A stretch of DNA of 64,000 nucleotides from an uncultured Candidatus Saccharibacteria bacterium. Lineage in GTDB: Bacteria > Patescibacteriota > Minisyncoccia > Minisyncoccales > GWA2-38-27. Where the stretch lies: the NCBI GenBank assembly GCA_964447515.1, contig CAYUSS010000002.1, forward strand, positions 11,020-75,019, written 5' to 3'. The position numbers and the translations under genes are program-made. This document shows, piece by piece, positions 8,402-58,861 of the stretch; the first letter of the stretch is position 1; each line of letters starts with the position of its first letter. Below the pieces are notes generated by a model. The model saw only the letters and a list, made by a program, of their open reading frames with translations. It was not told the DNA's origin and did not search any database.

Positions 8402-8458
8402 TTAATAATATGGTCTGTTGGCATTTGATAATAGGACACAGGGGGCGACCCCTAGGAT

Positions 8459-8477
8459 ACAGGGGGCGACCCTCTGT
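8459..8477. repeat. REP-like hairpin ACAGGGGGCGACCCTCTGT (a partial copy lies at 8438-8453)
   Basis: 8-bp stem with a 3-nt loop, followed by duplicated CTCTGTAAATATTAA. Confidence 0.7.
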
Positions 8478-8519
8478 AAATATTAACCTCTGTAAATATT
8501 AAATAAATTTTAGGGAAAT

Positions 8520-9302: not shown

Positions 9303-9305
9303 ACT

Positions 9306-9324
9306 TACAGAGGGTCGCCCCCTG
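9306..9324. repeat. REP-like hairpin ACAGAGGGTCGCCCCCTGT (inverted relative to 8459-8477)
   Basis: Reverse complement of the left-flank hairpin, followed by duplicated CCCCCTGTAAATTTCG. Confidence 0.7.
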
Positions 9325-9384
9325 TAAATTTCGACCCCCTGTAAATTTCGAATTTTATACCAACAGACAGTAAAAAATGAATTC

Positions 9385-10140
9385 ATGAAGCCATTAATTA
9401 TCGCAAATTGGAAGATGAATCCGCAGACTTTGGCCAAAGCCAAGTGGCTTTTTAATTCTCTAAAAAGAGGATTAAAAAATAATAAAAAAGTAGAAGTAGT
9501 AATTTGCCCGCCGTTTGTATATTTGCTAAATCCAAAATCTCAAATCTCAAATGTCAAATTAGGTTCGCAAAATTGTTTTTGGGAAAAAGAAGGCGCTTAT
9601 ACAGGCGAGATTTCTCCAGACCAACTTTTAAATTTGGGTTGTCAATATGTTATTGTCGGGCATTCTGAAAGACGGAGATATTTTAAGGAAACAGACGAGA
9701 TAATAAATAAAAAATTAAAAGCAGTAATTAAAATTAAAATGAGTCCTATTTTATGTATAGGGGAGACCAGGGAACAGAGAAATAAAGGAGAAACAGAGAT
9801 GGTTTTAAAAAGGCAAATAGAGTTAGCCCTAAAAGGAGTTACAAGTTACAAGTTACAGGTTTCAGGATTTTGTATTGCTTACGAGCCGGTTTGGGCTATT
9901 GGAACCGGAAAACCTTGTGATGTTGAAGAAACTCAGAAAATGGGCTTACTCATCAGAAAGATTATTACCAAGCTCTACAATTCTCCAACCGCTAAAAGAA
10001 TTAGAATTCTTTATGGAGGCAGTATAAATAGTAAAAATGCTGCCGGTTATATAAAAGAGGCTCATCTTCAAGGACTTCTTGTCGGAGGAGCTTCTTTAAA
10101 CGCAAAAGAGCTTATTAGGATAGTCAGAGCAGTGAGTTGA
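9385..10140 (+). CDS. tpiA: triosephosphate isomerase
   Basis: Motifs IIANWKMN, VGHSERR, AYEPVWAIGTG, YGGS. It contains an in-frame GTTACAA word repeat at 9838-9859. Confidence 0.9.
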   Translation: MKPLIIANWKMNPQTLAKAKWLFNSLKRGLKNNKKVEVVICPPFVYLLNPKSQISNVKLGSQNCFWEKEGAYTGEISPDQLLNLGCQYVIVGHSERRRYFKETDEIINKKLKAVIKIKMSPILCIGETREQRNKGETEMVLKRQIELALKGVTSYKLQVSGFCIAYEPVWAIGTGKPCDVEETQKMGLLIRKIITKLYNSPTAKRIRILYGGSINSKNAAGYIKEAHLQGLLVGGASLNAKELIRIVRAVS

Positions 10141-10865: not shown

Positions 10866-12776
10866 ATGAAGGCAAAAGAATTGCGGAGAAAATATCTTCA
10901 ATTTTTCAAAGAAAAAGGGCACGCTATAATTCCTGGCGCTTCTTTGGTTCCAGAGCACGATCCGACTGTGCTTTTTACTACGGCTGGGATGCATCCCTTG
11001 GTGCCTTTTTTATTAGGGGAAAAACATCCAGCTGGCCAGAGATTAGTTAATTGTCAGAAATGTTTGCGTACCGGTGATATTGATAAAGTCGGCGATTCCT
11101 GGCATTTAACTTTTTTTGAAATGTTAGGGAATTGGTCAGTTGGTGATTATTGGAGAAAAGAGGCAATTGAATGGAGCATTGAATTTTTAACTAAGAAGAA
11201 ATGGTTGGGAATTCCAAAAGAAAAATTAAGCATAACAGTTTTTGCTGGCGATAAAGATGCTCCAAGAGACGAAGAATCAGCTCAAATTTGGCAAAAACTA
11301 GGTATTGCCAAAGAGAGAATTTATTTTTTACCAAAAAACGAGAATTGGTGGGGTCCAGCAGGTCAGACCGGCCCCTGTGGTCCCTGCACCGAGATGTTCT
11401 ATGATGTTGGCAAAGATAAATGTGGTTCCGATTGCCGGCCAGGTTGCGATTGTGGCAAATACGTTGAGATTTGGAATGATGTTTTTATGGAATACAATAA
11501 GAAAATCAAAATGACAAATCAAAATTCAAAAAGAAATAAACCCAAAAACCATAATGACGAAATAGAATATGAATATGTGCCATTAGTACAAAAAAATGTT
11601 GATACTGGAATGGGGGCTGAGAGAACAGTAGCCATATTGAATGGTCAGGACAATGTTTATGAAATGGAATTGTTTGCACCAATAATCAAAAAGATTGAAA
11701 CTTTAACAAATACAAGTTACAAGTTACCCGCCCGCCTTGCTTCGCAAGACGAAGCGGGTTCGCCTCGCTTTAGCTTCGGCGAAGCGGGCGAGCGAGTTAC
11801 AAGTTACAGGATAATCGCTGACCACTTAAAAGCAGCTACTTTTATCTTAGCCGAAAACATTGAGCCATCCAACGTTGAGCGAGGTTATGTGCTCCGCCGA
11901 CTAATTCGGCGAGCAGTTAGATATGGTCGGCAATTGGGTATTAAGGATGTATTTTCTCACAAAATTGCTGAAACAGTGATTGATATTTATAAAGAAATTT
12001 ATCCTCATCTTTGGCAAGGGAAAGATTTTATTTCTGGGCAGTTAATTAAAGAAGAAGAGAAGTTTGAAAAGACCCTGGCTAAAGGGTTGCGAGAATTGGA
12101 GAAATTAGTTAATAAAAAGTATCAGAGAGAAAAAGAATTTGGAGGAGAAGATGCCTTTTATATTTACGAAACTTTTGGCTTTCCTTTAGAAATGATTGAA
12201 GAAGAATTAGTCCATTATGGTTTAACAGTTAATTGCCAAGATTTTCAGGAAGCTTTCAAAAAACACCAAAAACTCTCTCGGGCTGGGGCTGAGCAAAAAT
12301 TCAAAAGCGGTTTAGCTGACCATTCTGTTCAGGTAATCAAGTATCATACCGCTACTCATTTATTACATCAGGCCTTAAGGGAAGTTTTGGGAACTTCTGT
12401 TAAACAAATGGGCTCTAATATTACTCCTCAACGACTTCGGTTTGATTTTTCTCATTCATCTAAAATGACCGAACAAGAACTTAAAAAAGTTGAAGGAATT
12501 GTTAATCAGAAAATTAAAGAAGATTTAGAAGTTAAAAAAGAAGAAATGTCTTACAAAGAGGCAATAAAATCAGGGGCTTTAGCTTTTGCTTTTAAACGGG
12601 CGGTGAGTGGGTGGCGTCCTGAAAGAGTAAATGTTTATTCTATTGGCGGTTTCTCAAAAGAAATTTGTGCCGGTCCTCATGTAAAAAGAACCTCTAAGCT
12701 TGGTAAATTTAAAATTATCAAAGAGAAATCATCCGGAGCAGGCATTAGAAGAATCCGCGCGATTTTAAAATCTTAA
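10866..12776 (+). CDS. alaS: alanine--tRNA ligase (short form without C-Ala domain)
   Basis: Class II core (FFKEKGH, FTTAGM, WGPAGQTGPCGPCTE), editing-domain HTATHLLHQAL and CAGPHV. A 99-bp in-frame repeat insertion lies at 11712-11810. Confidence 0.9.
   Translation: MKAKELRRKYLQFFKEKGHAIIPGASLVPEHDPTVLFTTAGMHPLVPFLLGEKHPAGQRLVNCQKCLRTGDIDKVGDSWHLTFFEMLGNWSVGDYWRKEAIEWSIEFLTKKKWLGIPKEKLSITVFAGDKDAPRDEESAQIWQKLGIAKERIYFLPKNENWWGPAGQTGPCGPCTEMFYDVGKDKCGSDCRPGCDCGKYVEIWNDVFMEYNKKIKMTNQNSKRNKPKNHNDEIEYEYVPLVQKNVDTGMGAERTVAILNGQDNVYEMELFAPIIKKIETLTNTSYKLPARLASQDEAGSPRFSFGEAGERVTSYRIIADHLKAATFILAENIEPSNVERGYVLRRLIRRAVRYGRQLGIKDVFSHKIAETVIDIYKEIYPHLWQGKDFISGQLIKEEEKFEKTLAKGLRELEKLVNKKYQREKEFGGEDAFYIYETFGFPLEMIEEELVHYGLTVNCQDFQEAFKKHQKLSRAGAEQKFKSGLADHSVQVIKYHTATHLLHQALREVLGTSVKQMGSNITPQRLRFDFSHSSKMTEQELKKVEGIVNQKIKEDLEVKKEEMSYKEAIKSGALAFAFKRAVSGWRPERVNVYSIGGFSKEICAGPHVKRTSKLGKFKIIKEKSSGAGIRRIRAILKS
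11712..11810. repeat. 99-bp composite repeat inserted in frame in alaS (GTTACAA words flanking G+C-rich palindromes)
   Basis: ACAAGTTACAAGTTAC occurs on both sides of ACCCGC...GCGGGT and TCGCCTCGC...GCGAGCGA palindromes. It encodes SYKLPARLASQDEAGSPRFSFGEAGERVTSY immediately before the conserved RIIADH motif. Confidence 0.8.
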
Positions 12777-12836
12777 CGTGGAGACCTGGTCTCTGCAGAG
12801 AGACCCGGTCTCCGCAGGTTTGGCTGCGGAGACCTT

Positions 12837-15550: not shown

Positions 15551-15775
15551 ATGGGAAAATCTAATAAAAAAGTTTATCGGAAAAACGGCATTGTTTTAGA
15601 GTCCTTACCAAGTACTCATTTTCGAGTAAAGTTAGATGAAGGGAAAGAAATAATTGCTCATTTAGCCGGGAGATTAAGAATTTACCGAATTAAGATTTTG
15701 CCCGGTGATAAAGTGATAGTAGAAATGAACCCCTATGATGAGAATCGGGGAAGAATAGTGTATAGGGGAAAATAG
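15551..15775 (+). CDS. infA: translation initiation factor IF-1
   Basis: [63 protein letters not shown] is a clear IF-1 S1-fold sequence. Start moved from track 15455 to ATG 15551. Confidence 0.9.
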
Positions 15776-15861
15776 AAGCTGATAAACGCTGATGACAACG
15801 CCGATAAACGCTGAAAAATAATTGACGTAAATCAGCGTAGATATCGGCGTAAATCTGTTTC
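15775..15861. repeat. word-hairpin spacer element (GAAGC...GCTTC/GTTTC family), copy 1
   Basis: About 90 percent identical by eye to 17691-17776. Built from GATAAACGC / GCGTAAATC words. Ends 9 nt before the rpmJ ATG. Confidence 0.8.
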
Positions 15862-15869
15862 TACAAACT

Positions 15870-15983
15870 ATGAAGGTTCGGTCTTCGGTAAAAAAAATTT
15901 GCAAAAATTGTAAAATTGTCAGGCGCAAAGGAAGGGTCTATGTAATTTGTAAAAATCCCAGGCACAAACAGCGCCAAGGTTAG
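15870..15983 (+). CDS. rpmJ: 50S ribosomal protein L36
   Basis: Not in the ORF track (37 aa). [37 protein letters not shown] is the canonical L36 sequence. Confidence 0.92.
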
Positions 15984-15994
15984 AAGTCTCGAAA

Positions 15995-16084
15995 CTTGTA
16001 ACTTGTAACGCGTAACCCAAGATTTATTTATATAATAATTTACATTTTTTCTTGGGTTATAAGTTATAGGTTACAAGTTACAAG
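15995..16084. repeat. GTTACAA/TTGTAAC word hairpin between rpmJ and rpsM
   Basis: Left arm CTTGTAACTTGTAACGCGTAACCCAAG, right arm CTTGGGTTATAAGTTATAGGTTACAAGTTACAAG. Same family as 25338-25442. Confidence 0.8.
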
Positions 16085-16088
16085 AATT

Positions 16089-16478
16089 ATGCCGAGAATA
16101 GCCGGAATTAATATTCCTGAGCAAAAACAAATAGAAAGAGCTTTAACCCATATATATGGCATAGGTTTAGTTTCCAGTAGAAAAATTTTAAGAGAAGCAG
16201 GTATTGATCCTTATCAACATAGTTCTGACTTGACCCCGGAACAGGTCAATAAACTTAGAGATATTATTGAAAAGAAATATAAAACTGAAGGAGAGCTTAG
16301 AAGAGAAATAATGTTGAATATTAAAAGGTTGCGTGAGATTGGTTCTTGGCGAGGAATTCGTCATAGCAAAGGATTGCCGGTTAGAGGGCAAAGGACAAGA
16401 ACTAATAATAGAACTGTTCGGGGAAATGTAAGAAAGACAGTAAGCTCAGGGAAAAGACAGGCTCCGGGATCCAAGTAA
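16089..16478 (+). CDS. rpsM: 30S ribosomal protein S13
   Basis: [10 protein letters not shown]...ALTHIYGIG...[12 protein letters not shown] is typical of S13. Confidence 0.95.
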
Positions 16479-16527
16479 TACCGCTGAGGTAACGCTGAAA
16501 ATTCAGCGTTTTTCACGAAGTGAAAAA
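16479..16527. repeat. spacer with two small hairpins, the second flush with the rpsK start codon
   Basis: ACGCTGAA-AA-TTCAGCGT at 16492-16509. TTTTTCAC-GAA-GTGAAAAA at 16509-16527, with the ATG at 16528. Confidence 0.75.
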
Positions 16528-16980
16528 ATGGGGAAAAAACGTATAGTAAAAAAAACCAGAGAAGAACTCTTGAAAGAGAGAGAAACCATAGAAGCGGGAA
16601 TGAGAAAAGAGATTAAGGTTTCGACTATCCCCAAAACGAAAGAGGGGAGGGTTTATATTTCTTCTTCTTATAACAATACTATGATTACTTTAACTAATTT
16701 ACAAGGAAATGTTTTAACTTGGGCTAGCGCCGGTTCTATTGGGTTTAAGGGGACGAAAAAATCTACGCCTTTTGCTGCCTCAAAAGTAGCTGAAGCAATA
16801 ACCTCAGCTGCTAAAAAATTAGGAATTGAAAAGGTATCAGTTTTAGTAAAAGGAATAGGGTCTGGTCGGGAATCAGCTATTAGGTCTTTAGTCACTCACG
16901 GTTTAGGTATTTCTTCTGTTACAGATGTAACTCCAATACCACATAACGGTTGTAGGCCGCCTAAGGCAAGACGGGTGTAA
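16528..16980 (+). CDS. rpsK: 30S ribosomal protein S11
   Basis: [42 protein letters not shown]...[12 protein letters not shown] is typical of S11. Confidence 0.95.
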
Positions 16981-17056
16981 TAACTGCTGAGGTAACGCTG
17001 GTAACAACGCTGAAAATTCAGCGTAAAATCTGCGTAACTTCAGTATTTTTCATAAA
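16981..17056. repeat. word-hairpin spacer upstream of rpsD
   Basis: Extended relative of the 16479-16527 spacer (GCTGAGGTAACGCTG...CAGCGT..., TTTTTCAT-AAA-GTGAAAAA). The GTG start of rpsD lies in the last arm. Confidence 0.7.
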
Positions 17057-17686
17057 GTGAAAAATAATAAGTGTAAAATTTGTAGAAAGTTAGGACAGAA
17101 ACTTTTTCTTAAAGGCGATAAATGCTTATCGCCAAAGTGCCCAATGGTAATAAAACCATATCCGCCAGGAATGAAAAGCAAAAGAAGAAGAAGGACGGTT
17201 TCTGAATATGGAAAAGAATTAAGAGAAAAACAGAAATTAAAAGTCTGGTATAATTTAAAAGAAAAGCAATTTAGAAAATATATAAAAGAAATTCTTGAAA
17301 AACGAGGAAAGGTAGAGGACACAAGCGCCTTATTGTTGAAAAAATTAGAGAGTCGTTTAGATAATGTAGTTTTTAGAATGGGGTTTGTTTCTTCTCGCAG
17401 TCAAGCTCATCAAATTATCAGTCATAATCATTTTTTAGTTAATGGAAAGATGGTTAATATTTCCTCTTTTCAGACAAAAAAAGGTGATAAGATTAGCCTA
17501 AATCCCCGGTCTGGCAAAAAAGTTATTTTCCAAAATCTTCCTACAATTTTAAAAAAATATAAACCTCCTTCTTGGATTAAGATTAATATTGGAAAATTGG
17601 AAGGGGAAATCATTGAAACACCGTTTTTAGAAGAGGCAGCTTCCCCAGCTGAGCTTTCCACCATTTTTGAGTATTATTCCCGCTAA
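17057..17686 (+). CDS. rpsD: 30S ribosomal protein S4
   Basis: N-terminal CKICRKLGQKLFLKGDKC zinc-ribbon-type S4 and an S4 RNA-binding domain (LESRLDNVVFRMGF). GTG start. Confidence 0.9.
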   Translation: MKNNKCKICRKLGQKLFLKGDKCLSPKCPMVIKPYPPGMKSKRRRRTVSEYGKELREKQKLKVWYNLKEKQFRKYIKEILEKRGKVEDTSALLLKKLESRLDNVVFRMGFVSSRSQAHQIISHNHFLVNGKMVNISSFQTKKGDKISLNPRSGKKVIFQNLPTILKKYKPPSWIKINIGKLEGEIIETPFLEEAASPAELSTIFEYYSR

Positions 17687-17690
17687 GATA

Positions 17691-17776
17691 GAAGCTGATA
17701 AACGCCGATGACAACGCCGATAAACGCCGATATATTTTAGCGTAAATCAGCGTAGATATCGGCGTAAATCTGCTTC
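17691..17776. repeat. word-hairpin spacer element (GAAGC...GCTTC family), copy 2
   Basis: Near-copy of 15775-15861. Ends 9 nt before the rpoA ATG. Confidence 0.8.
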
Positions 17777-17784
17777 TACAGAAT

Positions 17785-18624
17785 ATGATACTTTTACCAC
17801 GACAAGCTAAAATTATTAGCAAAAAAGATAACTGGGCTCGTTTTGAAATTGAGTCCCTATATCCTGGTTATGGAGTAACTATTGGTAACGGTCTTAGAAG
17901 AGTTTTGCTTTCTTCTTTACCAGGAGCAGCTGTAACTCAAATGAAGATTAAAGGAGTTCAGCACGAATTTTCAACAATATTCGGAGTTTTAGAAGATGTA
18001 ATCAACATTATAATGAATTTAAAGCAAATGAGATTTAAAATATACACCGATGAACCCCAAAAAGCATTCCTGAAAATTAAAGGAGAAAAAGAAGTCAAGG
18101 GTTCTGATTTTGATTATCCCAGTCAGGTTGAATTAATAAATAAATCTTGTCATATCGCTACTTTAACTGATAAAAAAGCAGAGTTAGAGATGGAAATTCA
18201 GATTGAGAAAGGTATTGGATATGAGCCGATTGAACGGAGGAAAAAACAGGAAAAATTAGAAATTGGAGTTATACCCGTTGATGCCATTTTTACTCCGGTT
18301 AGAAGGGTAAGTTATAAAGTAGAAAATATGCGGGTAGGAGAGAGGACAGACTTTGATAGATTATATTTAGAAGTTGAGACCGACGGAACAGTTACTCCTA
18401 AAGAAGCCTTCTATCGGGCCTCGGAAATTTTAGTAAAACATTTTTCCTTGCTTAGAGAAAGCTTCAAGGTCCTGGAAGAAAAGAAGCTTCCTGAAGAGAG
18501 AGCTCCTAAAAAGAAACCCGCTCCTATTAAAGCTAAGGCTTCTATTAAAGATAGGGCCGCCAAAAAAGCTGGCGTAGTCAAAAAGAAAAAGAAAAAGCCC
18601 AAAAAGAAGAAATCAAATGCGTAA
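17785..18624 (+). CDS. rpoA: DNA-directed RNA polymerase subunit alpha (NTD plus Lys-rich tail; no recognisable CTD)
   Basis: Alpha NTD motifs (FEIESLYPGYGVTIGNGLRRVLLSSLPGAAV, DAIFTPVRRVSYKVE). After about residue 230 only a low-complexity KKKPAPIKAKA...KKKKKKPKKKK tail remains. Confidence 0.9.
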   Translation: MILLPRQAKIISKKDNWARFEIESLYPGYGVTIGNGLRRVLLSSLPGAAVTQMKIKGVQHEFSTIFGVLEDVINIIMNLKQMRFKIYTDEPQKAFLKIKGEKEVKGSDFDYPSQVELINKSCHIATLTDKKAELEMEIQIEKGIGYEPIERRKKQEKLEIGVIPVDAIFTPVRRVSYKVENMRVGERTDFDRLYLEVETDGTVTPKEAFYRASEILVKHFSLLRESFKVLEEKKLPEERAPKKKPAPIKAKASIKDRAAKKAGVVKKKKKKPKKKKSNA

Positions 18625-18967
18625 ACTTAAAAAGGGTAGAAAACTTTCAAGAAAAAGAAATCAGCGAAAAGCCCTGTTAAAATCTTTAGCCAGAGCTCTT
18701 TTTTTAGAGGAAAAAATAAGGACTACTGAAGCAAAAGCTAAAGAAATTTCAGCCTTTGCAGAAAAATTTATAACCCGAGCAAAAAAGCAAGATTTAGCTT
18801 CCAGACGAATTTTAGCAAAATATTTTTCAAAAAATTTAGTTAAGAAGTTAGTTGAGGAAATTGCCCCCAGATATAAGGAGAGAAAAGGAGGATATACAAG
18901 GATTATTAAGTTGGGACCTAGAAAATCAGATGGAGCAAAGATGGCAATTATTGAGCTGGTAAAGTAG
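18617..18967 (+). CDS. rplQ: 50S ribosomal protein L17
   Basis: KLSRKRNQRKALLKSLARALFLEEKIRTTEAKAKE...GGYTRIIKLGPRKSDGAKMAIIELV is typical of L17. Confidence 0.92.
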   Translation: MRKLKKGRKLSRKRNQRKALLKSLARALFLEEKIRTTEAKAKEISAFAEKFITRAKKQDLASRRILAKYFSKNLVKKLVEEIAPRYKERKGGYTRIIKLGPRKSDGAKMAIIELVK

Positions 18968-19061
18968 AAGCGGATCGCTTCGCTTCACGCGGATAGTTAC
19001 GCGGAAAAACGCGGAAGGCTATCTGCGTAAATCTGCGTTACTATCCGCGTTATTCTGCTTC
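18967..19061. repeat. word-hairpin spacer (GCGGAT/ATCCGC, TACGCG/CGCGTA words) upstream of rplM
   Basis: Starts GAAGCGGAT and ends CTGCTTC. The terminal clamp GAAGC/GCTTC and the distance to the ATG match the 15775 and 17691 elements. Confidence 0.75.
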
Positions 19062-19068
19062 TATAAAT

Positions 19069-19416
19069 ATGGAACGTAAAACCCATACCATTGATGCCAG
19101 CAATAAGGTTTTAGGAAGATTGGCGGTTCAAATTGCCATATTATTGCGTGGTAAACAGAAAGTAGATTTTGCCCTTAATAAAGATATGGGAGATTTTATT
19201 GTTGTTAAAAATATCAATAAAATCAAGTTAACAGGTAAAAAAAAGGAAAAGAAAATTTATTACCATCACACCGGCTATTTGGGGGGATTAAAAGGGATTT
19301 CTTTTGAAAAACTTTTTAAAAAAAATCCCGGAGAAGTTTTAAGAAAAGCAGTTTTTGGGATGCTGCCTAAAAATAAATTAAGAGCTAAACAGATAAAGCG
19401 TTTAAAAGTAGAGTGA
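19069..19416 (+). CDS. rplM: 50S ribosomal protein L13 (short, 115 aa)
   Basis: IDASNKVLGRLAVQIAILLRGK...YYHHTGYLGGLK...AVFGMLPKNKL is typical of L13. It ends at RLKVE, before the usual conserved C-terminal segment. Confidence 0.88.
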   Translation: MERKTHTIDASNKVLGRLAVQIAILLRGKQKVDFALNKDMGDFIVVKNINKIKLTGKKKEKKIYYHHTGYLGGLKGISFEKLFKKNPGEVLRKAVFGMLPKNKLRAKQIKRLKVE

Positions 19417-19564
19417 TCACTTAGCAATCAAGCCCTCAGAAAAATATCGCTCGGCAAAATGATTTTCTTGAGCAACCCCCGCCCCGCTGCAACGGGGCGG
19501 GGGACCACACCCACCCACTTCATGCTCAAGAAGATCATCTTGCCTCGCTCTATTATTCGCAAAT
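19417..19564. repeat. ~150-bp G+C-rich long-hairpin element between rplM and rpsI
   Basis: 36-nt arms (GAAAAATATCGCTCGGCAAAATGATTTTCTTGAGCA versus its imperfect complement) surround an apical hairpin CCCCCGCCCCG-CTGCAA-CGGGGCGGGGG. Confidence 0.65.
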
Positions 19565-20110
19565 TTGTATTGGTTTATGAAAAAAACAACAACTAAAACC
19601 AAAAAATCTACCAAAAAGGAAAAACCCAAGAAAACTGAAAAAATAAAGAAGGAAGAAAAGAAAGTATCTGCAAAGAAAAAGGCTGAGAAAAAAGAAACCA
19701 AGAAAAAAACTGTCAAACCAGCGCAATATCTTGAAAGTGTTGGCAAACGAAAAACAGCAGTAGCTCGGGTGAGAATTTTTACTAAAGGGGAAAAGGAGAT
19801 TTTAGTTAACGAAAAACCTTATCAGGATTATTTTTTTACTCCTGAACTTCAACAGGTTGCTACCGATTCTCTCCGAAAAATGAAATCTCTTGATAAGTTT
19901 AGAATTTCGGTCAAGGTAAAAGGAGGGGGAATTTTTGCCCAAGCTGAAGCCGTAAGGCATGGAATAGCCAGGGGTTTAGTAAAGTTTAATCCTGATTTTC
20001 GCAAGCGGCTCCGTAGGATAGGCTATTTAACAAGGGACCCAAGAGCAAGAGAAAGAAAGAAATTCGGCTTAAAACGCGCCCGCCGAGCCCCCCAGTGGAA
20101 GAAGAGATAA
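19565..20110 (+). CDS. rpsI: 30S ribosomal protein S9 with ~55-aa Lys-rich N-terminal extension
   Basis: S9 core GKRKTAVARVRIF...GGGIFAQAEAVRHGIARGL...RDPRARERKKFGLKRARRAPQWKKR. The exact start is uncertain. Confidence 0.88.
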   Translation: MYWFMKKTTTKTKKSTKKEKPKKTEKIKKEEKKVSAKKKAEKKETKKKTVKPAQYLESVGKRKTAVARVRIFTKGEKEILVNEKPYQDYFFTPELQQVATDSLRKMKSLDKFRISVKVKGGGIFAQAEAVRHGIARGLVKFNPDFRKRLRRIGYLTRDPRARERKKFGLKRARRAPQWKKR

Positions 20111-20814: not shown

Positions 20815-20854
20815 ACGAGACCCGACCTCGTCACGAGGTCGGGTCTCGTTTTTT
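20815..20854. terminator. perfect palindromic hairpin between convergent genes (bidirectional terminator candidate)
   Basis: ACGAGACCCGACCTCGT-C-ACGAGGTCGGGTCTCGT followed by T5. Confidence 0.75.
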
Positions 20855-22484
20855 AGGGAACTAATTTTTTTGAACTATATAAAGTTTCTTCAGATAAAAT
20901 ATATAATTTTTTATTAGTTTGATTCCAGAATATTTTAGGAGGTTTTCCTTTTTTAGAAGAGGGAAATTCAGCAAAATCAACAATATTTATTTTATCTCGG
21001 TTGTCGATTTCAATGATTTTTATTTTATCTCCAACATCAAATACTAAATAGTGATTTGTGTACCAAAAAATTTCATTAATTTTTTCTGAAAAACGAGTTA
21101 AGAATACTTTTTCTCCGGCCTCTCTTTGGGGCTGGTTATATATTTGTTCCAAAAACAAAATCCAGATTTCGTAATTATTGAAATAAACTAATTTTTTGGA
21201 ATCCGGTGAAAATCTTAAGTTTTTAACTGGTTCAAAAAGTTTTTCAAAAGTTTTTTGAGCCTTATTTAGAGAATATAAAATATTACTTTCTTTCAGAAAA
21301 ATGTGGGAATTTATTCCGAATATTTTGTATTCAGTTTCTTTCTTTGGAGGAAGGGGAGTTGTATTTAATTTTTCTTTAGGAGAAAAAGAGAAATCAGTTC
21401 TAAAAACAAAACCCGAGTTATCAAGACAATGAATATTGTTTTTAAGAACCGAGCAAGTAATTATATTTTCAAAATGAGGTGAAGAGATTTTTTTATCAAT
21501 TAACCCTGTTAAATTGCTCCGCTCCGACTTTGTCGGATTTAACAGGGTTAAATCTGCTTCGCTTAATTTTCCTGTTTTTAATATTAATAATTTTTGGGGA
21601 TTTTTTGGGTTAAAATAAACTTCCTGCACATCCGGACCTAAAAAATCAAGGGGAGTTAAAACTACCGGAACCTTATCTATTTCTAAAAGATAATATATCT
21701 TAACACCCGACGTTTCCCTTGGCGCCTCTGGCCCGCCTAAATTTTTCTCTGAAAAACTTGAGTTGGCTGGCGCCAATTCCTCAACGTCGGGTGTTGAAAT
21801 TATTCCAACTTCAAGTAATATTCTTTTTGAGTCAGGAGAAAATTTTAAATCAATTAGTTGAACTTGTTCCCCGCCTTCGCCAAGGCTACTGCGGGCAGGA
21901 AGGGAAATATCTTTTTCTTCAATTAAAAGACTTTTAACATTTTTTTCTAAATCAAAAAGTTTTAAAGCCCATCCTTCGCCAAGGCTTCGGTTGGCAAGCA
22001 AGCTTGAGCTTTCAGGGTTTTGAGGATTTTCAGGGTTCGTATTTGTTTCCTCCTTTAAAATTATTTTTTTATTATCAGGAGAAAAATAAAAACTTTCTAT
22101 TCCTTTGGATATAATTGTAAAATTAGGGTTTTCTGAAATTAAAATAATATTTTTTGCTTCGGTGACCTCTCTTTCTTTTATTTCCAAAGTTTTTTTCCAG
22201 CTATGGAACCCTTGTTTTCTAATTTCTATACTATATTTTTTAGGCGAAAGGTTTTCAATTAGAGCTGAGCCAAAGAAAAAGTCAGTTTTCTTTTCAAACT
22301 CTTCATTAAGGTAGATTTGGCTATTTTTGGGCCAAATTTTAAAATAAAAAACTCCCGGTTGGATAATTTTTTTTGTTTCCCAATCAAAATGCCAACCCAG
22401 ATAATATAAAATAGTTACCGGGGCAACTATTAAGAACAAAATTGCCAGAAATAAAAATAAAATAGTCCGAACTTTTTTAGTCAT
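20853..22484 (-). CDS. membrane-anchored PEGA-domain / beta-propeller-like protein
   Basis: N-terminal TM, a PEGA-like segment (SQIYLNEEFEKKTDF...YSIEIRKQGFHSW), and repeated FSPD(S/N)KK motifs. It carries three in-frame repeat insertions. Confidence 0.55.
   Translation of the reverse strand: MTKKVRTILFLFLAILFLIVAPVTILYYLGWHFDWETKKIIQPGVFYFKIWPKNSQIYLNEEFEKKTDFFFGSALIENLSPKKYSIEIRKQGFHSWKKTLEIKEREVTEAKNIILISENPNFTIISKGIESFYFSPDNKKIILKEETNTNPENPQNPESSSLLANRSLGEGWALKLFDLEKNVKSLLIEEKDISLPARSSLGEGGEQVQLIDLKFSPDSKRILLEVGIISTPDVEELAPANSSFSEKNLGGPEAPRETSGVKIYYLLEIDKVPVVLTPLDFLGPDVQEVYFNPKNPQKLLILKTGKLSEADLTLLNPTKSERSNLTGLIDKKISSPHFENIITCSVLKNNIHCLDNSGFVFRTDFSFSPKEKLNTTPLPPKKETEYKIFGINSHIFLKESNILYSLNKAQKTFEKLFEPVKNLRFSPDSKKLVYFNNYEIWILFLEQIYNQPQREAGEKVFLTRFSEKINEIFWYTNHYLVFDVGDKIKIIEIDNRDKINIVDFAEFPSSKKGKPPKIFWNQTNKKLYILSEETLYSSKKLVP
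21702..21795. repeat. long (nested) form of the ACACCCGACGTT palindromic element, in frame in the PEGA ORF
   Basis: Encodes TPDVEELAPANSSFSEKNLGGPEAPRETSGVK on the minus strand. Same family as 23211-23266, 31689-31781 and 54782-54840. Confidence 0.8.
21869..21899. repeat. G+C-rich palindrome CCCCGCCTTCGCCAAGGCTACTGCGGGCAGG in frame in the PEGA ORF
   Basis: Near-copy, in inverted orientation, of the miaB insert core at 46261-46290. A related copy lies at 21968-22003. Confidence 0.75.
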
Positions 22485-22630
22485 CTTAATGTAGGCTTAT
22501 TTTAACACTTTTTTGTTTTAATGTTTAGATGCAAAAAATACACGGGTCGGACTCGTGTATTTCCCGTATAGTATGGACAGAATTCTAATGGGGCTTGCCA
22601 AATTTTAAATTTTGCTTTAGTATAAAATTA

Positions 22631-22758
22631 AGACCGTTGAATAATTCAGCGTTGTTCAGCGTAGATATCGGCGTTATTCAGCGTTAGCATAGTTTTATCG
22701 CTGAACCACGCTGGACTATACGCTGAAATTACGCTGAAAAATAATTATTCAACACTCT
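22631..22758. repeat. 128-bp CAGCG-word hairpin element, copy L (immediately upstream of murA)
   Basis: Its reverse complement matches 28109-28236 with 5 mismatches in 128 (hand alignment). Terminal arms are GTTGAATAATT / AATTATTCAAC. Confidence 0.85.
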
Positions 22759-22765
22759 AAAAATT

Positions 22766-24091
22766 ATGACCGAAAAATTTGTGATCCAAGGAGGAAAAAC
22801 TTTAAAAGGAACCATTGAGGCCAGAGGGGCAAAAAATGCCGCTCTTCCGATATTAGCCGCCACCCTCTTGACTAAAGAACCTTGTATTATTGGCAACCTT
22901 CCTTTAATTGAGGATGTTTTCAAAATGCTGAAGATTTTAGAAGGGTTGGGAGCTGAAATTTCTTGGCTGGGGAAAAGAAAAATTAGAATAAAATGTTCAA
23001 ATATTAATCCTTCAAAACTTCCCTGGGATATTGTTGGTTGTCTTAGAGGTTCGGTTTTAATTTTAGGGCCGCTTTTAGCCCAATTTGCCAAAATAAAAAT
23101 TCCTTCGCCGGGTGGTTGTTTAATTGGTGCCAGACCCTTAGACAGCCATTTAGATGCTTTTTCTCAGGCAGGTATTAAAGTTTCATCAAAAGATAAATTT
23201 TATTACTTTACAACACCCGACGTTGAGGAATTGGCGCCAGAGGCGCCAAGGGAAACGTCGGGTGTTAAGGAATTAAAATTTAAGCCTATAGAAATTATTC
23301 TTAGGGAATTTAGTGTTACTGCAACCGAAAATATTCTTTTGTTTTCTGTTCTTAGGGCCAAGAAAACTATTTTGAAAATTGCTGACCAAGATTATCAGGT
23401 TCAAGAATTAACCAAAGTTCTTAAAAAAATGGGAGCAAAAATTAAACCGAGTGGGGTCCATATCCTGAATATTATTGGTCAAAAAAAATTAAAAGGATTT
23501 AATCATTATTTAATGTCAGACCCCATAGAAGCAGGAACTTTTATTGTAGCAGCATTAGCAACCCAGGGAGAAGTCTTGATTAAAAACGCTGAGTTTTCTT
23601 TTCTTGAACTTTTTTTAAAGCATCTTCGGGATTTTGGGGCGAAAATTGAAATTTTAGGCCCAAAAACAATCAAGGTTTTTCCTTCAAGGAAACTTAAAAT
23701 GGATAAAGTCCAAAGTTCACCTTATCCCGGCATTCACACCGATTTACTGCCGGAACTTGGAGTTTTAGCTACTCAAACCGAAGGTCTTACCTTAATTCAC
23801 GACCCCTTATATGAAAGTCGGCTTAAATACCTTGAAGAATTAAATAAAATGGGGGCTGATATAATTTTTTGCGACCCTCACCGGGCAATAATTAACGGCC
23901 CCACCTTGCTTAAGGGGATTGAAATTCCCAGTTCTGATATTCGAGCCGGAGCTGCCCTGATTATTGCCGGATTAATAGCTAAAGGAAAAACAATAATTGG
24001 TAATATTTATCAAATTGATAGGGGATACGAACGTATTGAGGAGCGCTTTCAGAAATTGGGGGCAGATATTAAAAGAATATCAGAGAAATAG
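22766..24091 (+). CDS. murA: UDP-N-acetylglucosamine 1-carboxyvinyltransferase
   Basis: FVIQGGKTLKGTIEARGAKNAALPILAA..., active-site-loop Cys context (PGGCLIGARPLD), C-terminal YQIDRGYERIEERFQKLGA. An in-frame 56-bp palindrome lies at 23211-23266. Confidence 0.93.
   Translation: MTEKFVIQGGKTLKGTIEARGAKNAALPILAATLLTKEPCIIGNLPLIEDVFKMLKILEGLGAEISWLGKRKIRIKCSNINPSKLPWDIVGCLRGSVLILGPLLAQFAKIKIPSPGGCLIGARPLDSHLDAFSQAGIKVSSKDKFYYFTTPDVEELAPEAPRETSGVKELKFKPIEIILREFSVTATENILLFSVLRAKKTILKIADQDYQVQELTKVLKKMGAKIKPSGVHILNIIGQKKLKGFNHYLMSDPIEAGTFIVAALATQGEVLIKNAEFSFLELFLKHLRDFGAKIEILGPKTIKVFPSRKLKMDKVQSSPYPGIHTDLLPELGVLATQTEGLTLIHDPLYESRLKYLEELNKMGADIIFCDPHRAIINGPTLLKGIEIPSSDIRAGAALIIAGLIAKGKTIIGNIYQIDRGYERIEERFQKLGADIKRISEK
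23211..23266. repeat. short form of the ACACCCGACGTT...AACGTCGGGTGT nested palindrome, in frame in murA
   Basis: CAACACCCGACGTTGAGGAATTGGCGCCAGAGGCGCCAAGGGAAACGTCGGGTGTT. Encodes TPDVEELAPEAPRETSGV. Confidence 0.85.
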
Positions 24092-24255: not shown

Positions 24256-24299
24256 ACTATTATTCGTATATTCGTAATAATTCGTAAATTCGTAGGGTT

Positions 24300-25328: not shown

Positions 25329-25337
25329 AATCTCGAA

Positions 25338-25442
25338 ACCTGTAACCTGTAACTTATAACCTGTAACCTGTAACCCTCTTGAGTTATAAGTTACAAGTTA
25401 TAAGTTACAAGATTTGGGTTACGAATTACAAGTTGCAAGTTA
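25338..25442. repeat. GTTACAA/TTGTAAC-type word hairpin upstream of holB
   Basis: Left arm ACCTGTAACCTGTAACTTATAACCTGTAACCTGTAACCC, right arm GAGTTATAAGTTACAAGTTATAAGTTACAAG... It shares the leader TCTCGAAAC with 15986-16084. Confidence 0.8.
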
Positions 25443-25443
25443 T

Positions 25444-26340: not shown

Positions 26341-26394
26341 ATAAACACGGGTCCGACCCGTGCAACCTGTACGGGTCGGACCCGTGTAAACCCT

Positions 26395-28097: not shown

Positions 28098-28108
28098 TTC
28101 AAATTATT

Positions 28109-28236
28109 AGGGTGTTGAATAATTATTTTTCAGCGTAATTTCAGCGTATAGTTCAGCGTGGTTCAGCGATAAAACTATGCTAATGCTGAACAACGCCGAT
28201 ATCTACGCTGAACAACGCGGAATTATTCAACGGTCT
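28109..28236. repeat. 128-bp CAGCG-word hairpin element, copy R (inverted; immediately upstream of mreB paralog 2)
   Basis: Reverse complement of 22631-22758 with 5 mismatches. Confidence 0.85.
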
Positions 28237-28242
28237 AATTAC

Positions 28243-29295: not shown

Positions 29296-29336
29296 AAATT
29301 TTCAATTTTCAATTTTCAATTTTCAATTTACAAATA

Positions 29337-31688: not shown

Positions 31689-31781
31689 AAACCCGACGTT
31701 GAGGAATTGGCGCCAGCCCGCCCAAGTTTTTCAGAAAAAAATTTAGGCGGGCCAGAGGCACCAAGGGAAACGTCGGGTTTT
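31689..31781. repeat. long (nested) form of the CCCGACGTT palindromic element, intergenic
   Basis: AAACCCGACGTTGAGGAATTGGCGCC-[GCCCGCC...GGCGGGC insert]-AGAGGCACCAAGGGAAACGTCGGGTTT. Confidence 0.8.
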
Positions 31782-31823
31782 GAAAATAGTTGATTTTTTT
31801 CAAAAAATATAATAGAATACAAT

Positions 31824-34119: not shown

Positions 34120-34124
34120 ATTTT

Positions 34125-34143
34125 ACAGAGGGTCGCCCTCTGT
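34125..34143. repeat. REP-like hairpin ACAGAGGGTCGCCCTCTGT between pheS and pheT
   Basis: Perfect palindrome of the family that flanks the RAYT-like gene at 8520..9302. Confidence 0.75.
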
Positions 34144-34150
34144 TAACTTT

Positions 34151-36238: not shown

Positions 36239-36338
36239 CAATTTTACAATTTTACAATTTAAAAATAAATTTAATAATTTTAAAATTCTAACATTTAATA
36301 AAAATTCTTAAATTCTAAAATTCTAAAATTTTTTAAGC

Positions 36339-38343: not shown

Positions 38344-38492
38344 TAAGCCTACTAAAGATGATGGCCAAAGAGGCCTTTTTAAGTGTCCGAACAGCGTAAG
38401 CTCACTTCGTTCGCTCTATGCGAACACGCACATAGGAATAATTATTAGCAATTTGTAGATTAGCATTAAATTCTTAGATTAGCATCATATTT

Positions 38493-38693: not shown

Positions 38694-38760
38694 GAACCTG
38701 CTCGCTGCGCTCGCAGAACCTTGATTCGCTAAAGTATGAATAACATATAATCTTAAATTA
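38694..38760 (+). repeat. GAACCTG...CAGAACCTTGATTCGCTAA...TATAATCTT module upstream of nusG (short form of the 141-bp gatB unit)
   Basis: Shares both ends with 42779-42919. TATAAT at 38746-38751 lies 9 nt before the ATG, with no SD between them. Confidence 0.7.
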
Positions 38761-39306: not shown

Positions 39307-39400
39307 TGCGATGCCAATATACTAATGAGCGATACCAATATACGAATACATACTAATGATACGAATTAAATTAGTATAATTCGTATATTAGTATTGATTT

Positions 39401-39826: not shown

Positions 39827-39873
39827 TAAGTGATAGCTGATAGGTTAAAAGATAAAGGATAATAAGCGTAAAA

Positions 39874-42734: not shown

Positions 42735-42749
42735 ATTTGGAGCTTTTTT
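42723..42749 (+). terminator. intrinsic terminator overlapping the thyX stop
   Basis: AGCTCCAAAT-AG-ATTTGGAGCT followed by T6. Confidence 0.75.
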
Positions 42750-42778
42750 CATTTTTCATTATTTGATAAAATTAATAT

Positions 42779-43060
42779 AAGAACCTGACTTCGTCAGAAC
42801 CTTGATTCGCTAAGGTATAGAAAACATATTGCGGCTTCGTCGCATAATTGCTTCACTCGGTTGAAGAAGAAAAATAAATTTTTCTTTTTCTCCCTCGTTT
42901 GCAATTATAATCTTGAATTAAGAACCTGACTTCGTCAGAACCTTGATTCGCTAAGGTATAGAAAACATATTGCGGCTTCGTCGCATAATTGCTTCACTCG
43001 GTTGAAGAAGAAAAATAAATTTTTCTTTTTCTCCCTCGTTTGCAATTATAATCTTGAATT
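42779..43060 (+). repeat. perfect tandem duplication, 2 x 141 bp, ending at the gatB start codon
   Basis: 42779-42919 and 42920-43060 read identically base for base. Each unit is the nusG-upstream module plus a ~75-bp internal palindromic insert. Confidence 0.9.
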
Positions 43061-47897: not shown

Positions 47898-48007
47898 AAT
47901 TGTATAATGAAAATCTACGAACTTAATGCCAATTATGCGAATTACTAATAATACTAATTATATTCGCAATTAGTAGATTGGTATTAAATTAGTAGATTAG
48001 CATCATG

Positions 48008-49696: not shown

Positions 49697-49803
49697 AAGT
49701 TATATGACGATGACAATGACAATGACTTTTTATTGTGAAATTTGATTATAAGTAAATATCACTTTTGTTATCGTTATTGTTATTGTCTTTTCCTTTGTTA
49801 TTG

Positions 49804-54781: not shown

Positions 54782-54840
54782 TCAACACCCGATGTTGAGG
54801 AATTGGTGCCAGAGGCGCTAAGGGAAACGTCGGGTGTTGA
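54782..54840. repeat. short form of the ACACCCGA(C/T)GTT nested palindrome, intergenic (dnaE / rpmF divergent spacer)
   Basis: TCAACACCCGATGTTGAGGAATTGGTGCCAGAGGCGCTAAGGGAAACGTCGGGTGTTGA. Confidence 0.8.
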
Positions 54841-55266: not shown

Positions 55267-55689
55267 ATGGCTAGTCGTCATCTATCACGGTCAATAGTCC
55301 TCCAAAGCTTATACCAGTGGGACTTTTCCGGGAAAAACCCAAAAAGATTAGAAGGGATTGTTGAAAAAAATATTAAAGAATTCGGTCCGGGCCTTAAGGA
55401 TGAAACTTTTATTTGGCAGTTAATTAACGGCATTGTTTCCAAGCTCTCTGATATTGATAAAGTTATTGAAAAAGCAGCGCCGGAATGGCCAATTGAGCAA
55501 ATAACCATTGTTGATAGAAATGTTTTAAGAATTGGGTTATACGAACTTTTATATACAGATAAAAAAGAAGTTCCTCCAAAAGTAGCTATGAATGAAGCAA
55601 TTGAGTTGGCTAAAACTTTTGGAGGCGAGAGTTCTGGAAAATTCATTAACGGTGTCCTGGGAACAGTCTACAAAGAACTTAATGAATAA
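55267..55689 (+). CDS. nusB: transcription antitermination factor NusB
   Basis: [18 protein letters not shown]...[15 protein letters not shown]...[12 protein letters not shown]...FINGVLG. Start moved to ATG 55267, outside the word repeat. Confidence 0.88.
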
Positions 55690-58687: not shown

Positions 58688-58772
58688 GGGTGCGTAGTCC
58701 CATAGGGGGTGGGATCGGTCTGTAAAACCGCTGTTCTTTTGAGCCCCGTCGGTTCGACTCCGACCGCACCCA
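58688..58772 (+). tRNA. tRNA-Tyr (GTA), class II with long variable arm
   Basis: Acceptor GGGTGCG/CGCACCC. Anticodon loop CTGTAAA. Variable-arm hairpin GTTC-TTTT-GAGC. T arm GTCGG-TTCGACT-CCGAC. Confidence 0.85.
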
Positions 58773-58781
58773 ATTAAATTC

Positions 58782-58854: not shown

Positions 58855-58861
58855 CAAAATC

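Follow-up and report, generated by a model that had tools for sequence, protein, structure and literature searches.

What are the long imperfect hairpins that stand between the genes of the alpha operon in this stretch of DNA, and do they belong to the means by which the operon is expressed? The stretch, called the window below in its whole length of 64 kb, comes from a genome of the Candidate Phyla Radiation (CPR; Patescibacteria/Parcubacteria), and fragments of relatives provided the DNA for comparison. A sequence-only reading of the window had proposed RNase III-type processing sites, transcript stabilisers or translation-initiation structures as possible roles, without deciding between them. 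We consider it likely, on comparison with relatives, that the spacers are instead several families of non-coding, palindromic dispersed repeats of ∼50-145 nt, termed word hairpins here, which resemble miniature transposable elements with inverted repeats (MITEs) and sequences of the STRR type (short tandemly repeated repetitive) and have been inserted at stop-to-start junctions.

Filled and empty junctions in the alpha operon

The folding energy of each spacer was compared with that of 200 dinucleotide shuffles, and a second, independent shuffle run agreed with the first. All six spacers named in the sequence-only reading fold well beyond shuffled expectation, with z-scores of -4.33 (infA/rpmJ), -8.25 (rpmJ/rpsM), -4.62 (rpsM/rpsK), -7.07 (rpsK/rpsD), -7.46 (rpsD/rpoA) and -7.60 (rplQ/rplM); for each of them 0-1 of the 200 shuffles reached the stability of the real spacer, while 110 coding 90-mers used as controls had a mean z of -0.06 (sd 1.1), with 0.9% below -3. 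The claim that every spacer of the operon carries such a hairpin needs two qualifications, as rpoA and rplQ overlap and form a junction without a spacer, and the rplM/rpsI spacer is filled by a hairpin of a different type, G+C-rich and devoid of word periodicity. Seven junctions from infA to rpsI are thus filled by palindromic repeats of 50-160 nt, overlapping rpoA/rplQ being the exception. The hairpins have stems of more than 20 bp and A-rich tails, and they occupy the whole spacer; over 32 hairpins the median gap is 2 nt to the stop codon and 6 nt to the start codon.

The description of the arms as repeated words facing their complements stood up well. Arms built of ACGC-N-GAT/ATC-N-GCGT words have a best period of 10-12 nt and those built of YTGTAAC/GTTACAR words one of 7 nt, the periodicity being significant against shuffles in 9 of 12 arms (P 0.002-0.05). 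Of 45 intergenic regions, 12 hold a 6-mer that occurs twice or more and whose reverse complement does so too; of 275 coding windows, 2 do. Three spacers do share a GAAGC...G(C/T)TTC clamp (15773-15863, 17689-17778 and 18965-19063), followed by TACAAACT-ATG, TACAGAAT-ATG or TATAAAT-ATG, and we refer to them as copies 1 to 3 of family A. Copies 1 and 2 are 89% identical, and copy 3 shares 84% identity with an element that precedes a putative pth in L068. In copies 1 and 3 the flanking TA and the first G of the element form the TAG stop codon of infA and of rplQ, respectively, and the ATG of the next gene lies 6 nt (rpmJ) or 5 nt (rplM) past the element end. The rpmJ/rpsM spacer belongs to a heptamer-word family, B, with two CTTGTAA words and one CGCGTAA on its 5′ arm, TTATAAG, TTATAGG and TTACAAG words on its 3′ arm, and a period of 7 on both (P 0.006 and 0.002). 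Two further spacers end in mini-hairpins of the form TTTTTCA(C/T)-NNN-GTGAAAAA (16509-16527 and 17046-17064). They had been described as flush with the start codon, which is right for rpsK, where TTTTTCAC-GAA-GTGAAAAA ends at the ATG, but not for rpsD, whose GTG start lies inside the 3′ arm of TTTTTCAT-AAA-GTGAAAAA. The resemblance of TTTCAC...GTGAAA to parS was treated as a coincidence, its half-sites being three extra bases apart.

The host of the window, which has a G+C content of ∼35.5% (0.355), is by protein comparison a CPR/Parcubacteria genome near Ca. Nealsonbacteria: its RpoA is 71-74% identical to those of metagenome-assembled genomes labelled Candidatus Nealsonbacteria, Minisyncoccales or Parcubacteria, and 83-90% identical to those of its relatives in the protein database. 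An identical RpoA occurs in four independent assemblies, across which the hairpin sequences are identical too, and an assembly artefact is thereby ruled out.

The decisive evidence comes from relatives in which the same junctions are empty. L023 (GCA_964391095.1) has an RpoA 90% identical to that of the window; where the DNA of the two aligns, identity is 69-95%, and ∼81-87% over the alpha operon. A MAFFT alignment resolves five of the six hairpins as clean indels. The corresponding spacers of L023 measure 4 nt (infA/rpmJ), 4 nt (rpmJ/rpsM), 2 nt (rpsM/rpsK), 1 nt (rpsK/rpsD) and 4 nt (rplQ/rplM), compared with 49-105 nt in the window, and its rplM/rpsI spacer is 7 nt; at rpsD/rpoA alone L023 holds a decayed hairpin with related words. 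In L082 and L083 (RpoA 87% identical) the spacers are at most 10 nt long at five junctions, including 5 nt at rpsD/rpoA, 2 nt at rpsM/rpsK in L082 and 1 nt at rpsK/rpsD in L083, with rplQ and rplM overlapping in L082, and the rpmJ/rpsM spacer of 40 nt holds a small, weak hairpin (z -2.8). The infA/rpmJ site of family-A copy 1 is therefore empty in both L023 and L082. In L084 (RpoA 83% identical) hairpins with z-scores from -4.8 to -8.0 are present at infA/rpmJ, rpmJ/rpsM, rpsM/rpsK and rpsD/rpoA, and the rplQ/rplM and rplM/rpsI spacers are merely short; the different word family at its infA/rpmJ junction points to independent gains. Among 18 species representatives from GTDB, 11 have at least one alpha-operon spacer with z < -4 and seven have none; four of the seven, L004, L013, L014 and L015, lack significant structure at the six junctions, where no spacer exceeds 48 nt. 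The tandem words of the structured spacers are usually specific to a genome, and the occupancy of junctions is patchy.

The word-hairpin architecture is, as far as these genomes indicate, widespread in Parcubacteria, and no junction conserves it. Such unconserved occupancy among relatives implies gain and loss of insertions rather than a conserved regulatory structure. On this comparison word hairpins are shown to have entered alpha-operon junctions of 1-10 nt, and short 5′ untranslated regions (5′UTRs), after the split from relatives whose RpoA is 87-90% identical. Since those relatives lack hairpins at the same junctions, the hairpins of the window appear as recent, lineage-specific insertions and not as conserved processing or initiation structures of the operon. 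The sequence-only reading is supported in part: its suspicion that the structure recurs in relatives with other words is borne out, though at junctions that differ among genomes, but it had itself named hairpin-free relatives as grounds for abandoning its proposal.

Dispersed copies and their remodelling

Family A can be followed beyond the operon. The TA-GAAGC...GCTTC-TA element, 88-99 nt long, occupies seven independent sites upstream of six different genes, namely rpmJ, rpoA and rplM in the window, rpoA in L055, and one gene each in L034, L028 and L068, which resemble, on their first residues only, those for EF-Tu, a response regulator and peptidyl-tRNA hydrolase. All seven copies have the termini TA-GAAGC(N)G ... 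C(N)GCTTC-TA. The L068 copy joins a 5′ arm of the rplQ/rplM type to a 3′ arm of the common type and looks like a recombinant, or chimera. Three of the sites lack an upstream cistron; there a -10-like hexamer lies 3-14 nt ahead of the element, which takes up the whole of a short 5′UTR. A scan of metagenome data that required an exact match to the 19-mer TCAGCGTAGATATCGGCGT returned 56 loci, ∼33 of them low in G+C and of the same architecture, while the high-G+C matches were apparently unrelated sequence with no hairpin architecture. The sense strand of family A carries stops in all three frames in five of the seven copies, and the -2 frame is open in six.

When the seven copies are aligned the skeleton is invariant, and nearly all variation falls at the central N of ACGC-N-GAT and at its partner, positions that are often mismatched with each other. 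Within an arm the words have been homogenised, reading C,C,C (ACGCCGA three times) in the rpsD/rpoA copy of the window and T,T,T (ACGCTGA three times) in L055, with the opposite arm retaining its own versions and the number of words differing between copies. This pattern points to slippage or conversion at the level of DNA, not to selection for pairing in RNA. By their pattern the arms have been reshaped once in place.

The alternative that survives best, though we think it unlikely, extends such remodelling to the origin of the elements, with each hairpin growing where it stands, from short palindromes that undergo replication slippage and template switching within a strand, and none transposed. 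It would account for arms of tandem words with periods of 6-12 nt, for the homogenisation just described (and for four CCTGTAA words at 25329), for word numbers that vary between copies, and for arrays at 29296, 39827 and 24262 that have no complementary arm. It would not account for copies 84-95% identical, with the same termini, at non-orthologous sites in different genomes, which require copying between sites. Slippage, on this evidence, probably reshapes the elements rather than creating each of them.

Several observations weigh against insertion of mobile repeats as a full account. A near-identical empty site was found neither by the empty-site comparison nor by flank-to-flank BLAST among all loci, which turned up only distant (∼71% identical) or identical filled sites; with [GAAGC...TTTCTA] taken out, infA/rpmJ would read GGAAAATACAAACTATG, which resembles the empty site of L023, GGCAAGTAAAAATATG. 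The TA that flanks all seven copies is compatible with a target-site duplication or with part of the inverted repeat. No transposase, REP-associated tyrosine transposase (RAYT) partner or Y1 transposase was found among the large or unannotated open reading frames (ORFs) of the window, which proved to be housekeeping genes or to lack a Pfam match. The rpsD/rpoA junction is filled in many lineages, with related elements in L055, L084 and, as the decayed copy, L023. The ATG stands 5-8 nt past the element in all seven copies, across an A-rich gap and usually after CAAA, and a gap so fixed hints at a constraint or function at the level of RNA, which a purely selfish model does not predict. Finally, unpaired positions are A-rich in the sense strand (208 A to 87 T, compared with 159 to 160 when the antisense strand is folded; p 0.016). 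A general A>T skew of the sense strand may account for this last bias, and because it could do so we have not counted the bias as a sign of function.

RNA-level signals and alternative readings

How would a compact operon tolerate so many inserted hairpins? Because the elements lie inside the operon, none of the six hairpins is followed by a T-tract and promoter-like sites are not in excess (16, compared with 13.9 +/- 4.4 expected), we infer that they are transcribed within the polycistronic mRNA, where they would fold as long imperfect hairpins. None of the six was called terminator-like. Three terminator-like sites were found in the operon region against 5.4 expected in shuffles, and the genuine terminators of the window are short G+C-rich stems followed by T-runs. 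Folding would leave ∼2 nt between stop codon and helix and ∼6 nt between helix and start, so that stop and next start would stay about as near as in relatives that lack the hairpins (-8 to +10 nt). A ribosome in the act of terminating reaches ∼12 nt past the stop and would, in addition, unwind the foot of the stem and leave the next start accessible. Either effect would preserve translational coupling in an organism nearly devoid of Shine-Dalgarno (SD) sequences, and the insertions would be tolerated; preserved coupling would explain both the permissive sites and the A-rich tail found in place of a terminator-making T-run. On this view the hairpins are probably tolerated because their fold keeps stop and start codons adjacent.

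That no SD is visible at these junctions, as had been observed, is true but not peculiar to them, since only ∼7 of the 66 genes of the window have a recognisable SD (examples are at 4037, 32224 and 40456, and at 44647 and 59051 on the minus strand). At many starts the context is A/T-rich, reading AATT-ATG or AAAT-ATG, and the -10-like hexamers 8-29 nt upstream of several ATGs suggest very short leaders. An SD can act across a stem, as in phage T4 gene 38. An SD upstream of the hairpin acting in this way was rejected here, there being no consistent SD at the junctions and SDs being rare genome-wide.

A bolder form of the same idea, to which we give rather little credence, is that the hairpins go beyond being tolerated and are mobile "stop-to-start bridges", suited by adaptation to a translation system that is tightly coupled and almost free of SDs. 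The element would bring its own stop codon (TA plus its G giving TAG) and a 5-8-nt A-rich tail before the start, and its helix would hold the stop ∼8 nt from the next start or sit at the 5′ end of a short-leader mRNA; the ribosome would melt the stem base and re-initiate, or the helix end would stand in for the SD duplex. If this were true, such elements could insert into any junction or 5′UTR with no loss of expression, and coupling would be tunable.

Conserved cis-regulatory RNAs of the alpha operon, whether RNase III sites, exonuclease barriers or initiation structures that would fix the relative amounts of ribosomal proteins and RpoA, are in our estimate improbable. The hairpins are stable and placed exactly between cistrons, rnc is encoded in the window (55682-56383), the helix-to-ATG distance of family A is constant at 5-8 nt, the unpaired sense-strand positions are A-rich and the rpsD/rpoA hairpin recurs in many lineages, all of which would suit such a role. 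Against it, the same junctions are hairpin-free in relatives 87-90% identical in RpoA, the occupied junctions differ among genomes, and the same elements precede unrelated genes elsewhere. Covariation is likewise absent from family A (RNAalifold term +0.14), in an alignment of seven very similar copies whose N positions pair inconsistently. Nor is the sense strand favoured: it folds better than the antisense strand in 23 hairpins and worse in 16 (p 0.37), the G-U pairs number 113 versus 109, and the second family-B copy, at 25329, folds better in antisense (-38.0 versus -28.3 kcal/mol). Cleavage by RNase III or protection from exonucleases would, under the insertion reading that we prefer, be a by-product or a later co-option and not the reason why the hairpins exist; by analogy with other repeats, such cleavage, stabilisation of transcripts and effects on initiation are possible consequences of carrying them.

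It seems less probable still that the words are arrays of sites at which a protein, such as a nucleoid protein, regulator or transposase, binds double-stranded DNA, with the hairpin potential incidental. The ACGC-N-GAT skeleton is invariant, with only its central base free, in copies from several genomes, pairing at the N positions is not maintained, and a spacing of 10-12 bp is close to one helical turn and would set the sites on one face. This invariance is also explicable by the youth of the copies; moreover, many unrelated word sets with periods of 6, 7, 8 and 10-12 nt, each of which would need its own protein, coexist in this one small genome and differ between genomes, and the neighbourhood holds no candidate gene. 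That the hairpins are intrinsic terminators or attenuators, or an S4-binding alpha-operon leader, can practically be discounted, since the Rfam Alpha_RBS match upstream of rpsM (RF00140, 15993-16121) is weak (21.6 bits, E 0.06, gathering score 38) and falls at a spacer of 4 nt in L023 and 40 nt in L082, T-tracts are wanting after all six hairpins, the only operon-strand terminator-like site within the operon (19121-19138) is weak and lies in the rplM coding sequence, and the strong terminator-like site at 20815-20849 comes after the downstream PD-(D/E)XK gene.

Apart from that match, a search of the operon against Rfam at E<=1 gave only two microRNA-precursor matches, of the kind that any hairpin attracts, and at gathering thresholds the whole window yielded tRNAs only. 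TIGR-Tas arrays were set aside, as there are no guide-length spacers and no Tas/Nop gene.

Related repeats and other features of the window

Among known repeats, the STRRs of heterocyst-forming cyanobacteria seem the nearest architectural analogue. Both consist of intergenic tandem heptamer words able to base-pair with an array of their complements, which gives a hairpin between genes transcribed together, as between hupS and hupL, where roles in transcript stability and translational coupling have been proposed (PMC2670836). Tandem heptamers, the mark of an STRR, are found in family B (15984 and 25329; period 7, P <=0.006), whereas other families have periods of 6, 8 and 10-12. The host is also different, CPR/Parcubacteria and not filamentous or heterocystous cyanobacteria, and the word hairpins have periods of 6-12 nt, take up whole stop-to-start junctions in a ribosomal operon and include at least one family with TA-flanked inverted termini and dispersal of whole elements across genomes. 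The words of the window are unrelated to what we take to be the STRR consensus words. In work attributed to Vioque (1997), STRRs reportedly lengthen a helix of RNase P RNA.

Judged by the features listed by Delihas in 2008 (PMC2229807), MITEs are similar in being non-coding and shorter than 200 bp (88-99 nt for family A and 144 nt for a further, MITE-like element of the window), in having terminal inverted repeats with 5′-TA-3′ ends (AGACCGTTGAATAATT and AATTATTCAAC at the ends of the 144-nt element), and in occurring as dispersed, non-orthologous copies with filled and empty sites (L023, L082). Unlike MITEs, family A is not A+T-rich relative to its genome (G+C 0.38-0.49, against ∼0.355 for the window); families B and C and the types before secY and gyrB are A+T-rich. 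The Correia elements of Neisseria, or NEMIS (Neisseria miniature insertion sequences), are also shorter than 200 bp, intergenic and co-transcribed as stem-loops with TA-ended inverted repeats, and their RNA is bound and cut by RNase III (PMC2229807, PMC2649163). In word hairpins, by contrast, the inverted termini are only ∼7-9 nt, the interior is a modular word array and not a fixed core, no site for integration host factor or outward promoter is evident, and no cognate transposase was found among the large or unannotated ORFs of the window.

BOX elements of Streptococcus pneumoniae are modular dispersed repeats with a predicted co-transcribed fold, whose internal module, boxB, varies in tandem copy number (PMC3049150); their modules are ∼45 nt and boxB adds little to the stem, while here modules of 7-12 nt form the stem itself. 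Repetitive extragenic palindromic (REP) sequences, with bacterial interspersed mosaic elements (BIMEs) and REPINs, the last being hairpin-forming doublets of REPs (PMC3116915), are likewise dispersed extragenic palindromes transcribed within operons, and they can stabilise upstream mRNA, according to the passage of PMC7509114 that cites Newbury 1987. They differ in being ∼20-40 nt long, G+C-rich and linked to RAYTs, where word hairpins are 50-145 nt with a G+C of 0.10-0.49, mostly A+T-rich, and the window offers no such partner. Enterobacterial repetitive intergenic consensus (ERIC) sequences are 127-bp imperfect palindromes between co-transcribed genes that alter the stability of flanking mRNA (PMC2229807); the likeness ends with the imperfect palindrome between co-transcribed genes, as there is no sequence relation, ERICs have no word structure and their effects run through RNase E. 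Cutting by RNase III or effects on mRNA stability have thus been reported among Correia, ERIC, REP and BOX elements (PMC2229807, PMC2649163, PMC3049150, PMC7509114).

In the literature searched, such elements had not been described for CPR/Patescibacteria, and the group goes unmentioned in a 2024 review of prokaryotic MITEs. CPR genomes are among the smallest and most compact, yet this lineage appears to have recently admitted palindromes at seven ribosomal-gene junctions, which would mean that palindromic mini-elements proliferate in bursts in these reduced genomes. Filled and empty junctions together form a natural experiment, from which to gauge the amount of structured RNA that can be accommodated between stop and start in a largely SD-less organism. 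On a practical level, structured intergenic regions in CPR genomes should not be taken for riboswitches or processing sites until filled and empty sites have been compared. Users should also be aware that gene callers misplace starts inside such elements, as for secY, mreB and holB here: the longest-ORF starts of secY (1168), holB (25414), mreB (28177) and infA (15455) lie inside or upstream of hairpin elements, and relatives and family models place the true starts of mreB (28243), holB (∼25444) and infA (15551) downstream of them.

Table 1. Genes of the alpha operon and palindromic elements of the window, in order of position
Feature	Position	Strand	Location	Remarks
A+T-rich word hairpin (AAAATGC heptamers)	1085..1180	+	before secY	thermodynamically weak; z -1.7
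infA	15551-15775			NCBIfam
Family-A word hairpin, copy 1	15773..15863	+	infA/rpmJ	TA-GAAGC...GTTTC-TA; z -4.3
rpmJ	15870-15983			NCBIfam
Family-B heptamer-word hairpin	15984..16088	+	rpmJ/rpsM	z -8.3; second copy at 25329
rpsM	16089-16478			NCBIfam
Short family-A-word hairpin (ACGCTGA/TCAGCGT)	16479..16527	+	rpsM/rpsK	z -4.6
rpsK	16528-16980			NCBIfam
Family-A-word hairpin (16985-17045) and mini-hairpin	16981..17064	+	rpsK/rpsD	z -7.1
rpsD	17057-17686			GTG start at 17057; NCBIfam
Family-A word hairpin, copy 2	17689..17778	+	rpsD/rpoA	rpoA ATG 6 nt beyond; z -7.5
rpoA	17785-18624			NCBIfam
rplQ	18617-18967			NCBIfam
Family-A variant (ACGCGGA words), copy 3	18965..19063	+	rplQ/rplM	z -7.6
rplM	19069-19416			NCBIfam
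G+C-rich long hairpin, without words	19417..19576	+	fills 160-nt rplM/rpsI spacer	z -9.3
rpsI	start 19577			start set by comparison with a relative
56-nt palindrome	21685-21797	-	in frame in hypothetical 543-aa ORF	second palindrome nested in loop
144-nt MITE-like element	22626..22769	+	abuts murA ATG	ends AGACCGTTGAATAATT ... AATTATTCAAC; encloses family-A words
56-nt palindrome	23211-23266		in frame in murA	peptide TTPDVEELAPEAPRETSGVK
Family-B heptamer-word hairpin, copy 2	25329..25443	+	mreB/holB	z -8.3
144-nt MITE-like element, inverted copy	28099..28240	-	M50 peptidase stop (28097) to mreB start (28243)	fills the spacer
56-nt palindrome	31691-31799		intergenic	
A+T-rich 8-nt-word hairpin	36239..36338	+	before gyrB	weak; z -2.0; G+C 0.10
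Family-C word hairpin (ATACTAAT / ATACGAAT / ACCAAT words)	39307..39400	+	before rplK	z -4.9
Family-C-like word hairpin	47898..48007	-	between two minus-strand genes	z -5.8
56-nt palindrome	54783-54838		intergenic	

The positions of the elements and genes are collected in Table 1. NCBIfam confirmed infA, rpmJ, rpsM, rpsK, rpsD, rpoA, rplQ, rplM and rpsI in the operon, and secY, murA, mreB, holB, gyrB, secE, rplK, nusB and rnc elsewhere. The rpoA product (17785-18624) has no alpha C-terminal domain and ends in a Lys-rich tail; family models match only its N-terminal part, roughly their first 240-250 positions, and PF03118 (alpha-CTD) is present in some close homologues and absent from many. Protein S9 has a Lys-rich N-terminal extension of ∼55 residues in common with L023 (19577-19735, the 5′ part of rpsI), and the true ATG of rpsI at 19577 was missed both by a generic ORF call (TTG at 19565) and by the NCBIfam match, which begins at residue 57. 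At 58688-58775, directly upstream of tRNA-Thr (58782-58855), the Rfam model of transfer-messenger RNA (tmRNA) matches below threshold (19.4 bits, E 4e-5; gathering score 47), and ARAGORN found no tmRNA.

The same architecture had been listed before a number of other genes, and the list holds in part. Strongly stable hairpins occur at 25329, 28098, 39307 and 47898, but the very high A+T content of the sites before secY, gyrB, nusB and secE and at 49697 leaves them with only marginal folding energies (z -0.9 to -2.3). Word periodicity is nevertheless present before secY, gyrB and nusB and at 49697, whereas the spacer before secE has directly repeated words only. The hairpin upstream of secY includes an inverted repeat of 40 nt that is 75% complementary (period 7, P 0.002), and that upstream of gyrB has a period of 8 (P 0.004 and 0.016). 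The family-B copy at 25329 contains the four CCTGTAA words and has a period of 7 on each arm (P 0.002). The word family of the rplK site (family C) is also the one at the infA/rpmJ junction of L084, and the 47898-48007 hairpin has 46 nt in common with 38443-38488.

The two copies of the 144-nt element in the window lie in opposite orientations, are 95% identical (22626-22769 matched to 28102-28240) and each adjoin a start codon; further copies occur at six metagenome loci (L030, L051, L053, L063, L076 and L079). The intergenic region before murA is 66 nt in L023 and 281 nt in the window, and the spacer before mreB, a gene whose start rests on the L023 comparison and on NCBIfam, is 33 nt in L023. 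A palindrome of ∼56 nt (CAACACCCGACGTTGAGGAATTGGCGCCAGAGGCGCCAAGGGAAACGTCGGGTGTTRA) has four copies in the window, two in frame within genes and two intergenic, with a second palindrome nested in the loop of two of the four. Owing to the in-frame copy, the murA product is 19 residues longer than its L023 homologue. These in-frame copies, in murA and in the 543-aa ORF, are taken as showing that palindromic elements are mobile in this genome, and in-frame insertion of palindromes is a behaviour known for Rickettsia palindromic elements (PMC10969869). In L023, an in-frame G+C-rich palindrome of 36 nt (CCCACCCGCATCGCTTCGCGAAGCGTTGCGGGCGGG) lies inside rpsD, the S4 gene (∼9477-9512), and an in-frame insertion of 39 nt in the N-terminal extension of rpsI (∼11627-11665); both are absent from the window.

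Two more families of short G+C-rich intergenic palindromes, ACACGGGTCCGACCCGTG and ACAGAGGGTCGCCCCCTGT, have z-scores down to -10.3 (12777-12836, 22548-22575 and 26341-26394; 8402-8519, 9303-9384 and 34120-34150), and they look (26341-26394, for example) more REP-like than the word hairpins do. Word arrays with no complementary arm stand directly 5′ of starts as (AATTTTC)x5, (GATAAGT)x3 and four ATTCGTA (29296-29336, 39827-39873 and 24262-24299), and the (AATTTTC)x5 type also occurs in L003, L034 and L052. A gap of 463 nt with no convincing ORF (5252-5714; G+C 0.47 in the surrounding 2 kb) folds as a string of near-perfect hairpins (minimum free energy -168 kcal/mol, z -9.2), the last of which is terminator-like with a T-run; it has no Rfam match, and the adjoining 404-aa ORF (4037-5251) has no Pfam match and a strong SD, a rarity here. 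A dispersed cassette of promoter-like form, GAACC-hairpin-GAACCTTGATTCGCTA...TATAAT...CTTGAATTA-ATG, stands upstream of unrelated genes in the window (38694-38760, and 42735-43060 as two tandem copies of 141 nt), in L023 (18795-18842) and in L084 (3633-3710 and 6847-6938), where one site is between rpoA and rplQ. Copies in the window and L023 are 94-95% identical, the aligned DNA being otherwise 69-91% identical, and the cassette could represent a mobile promoter whose leader is very short.

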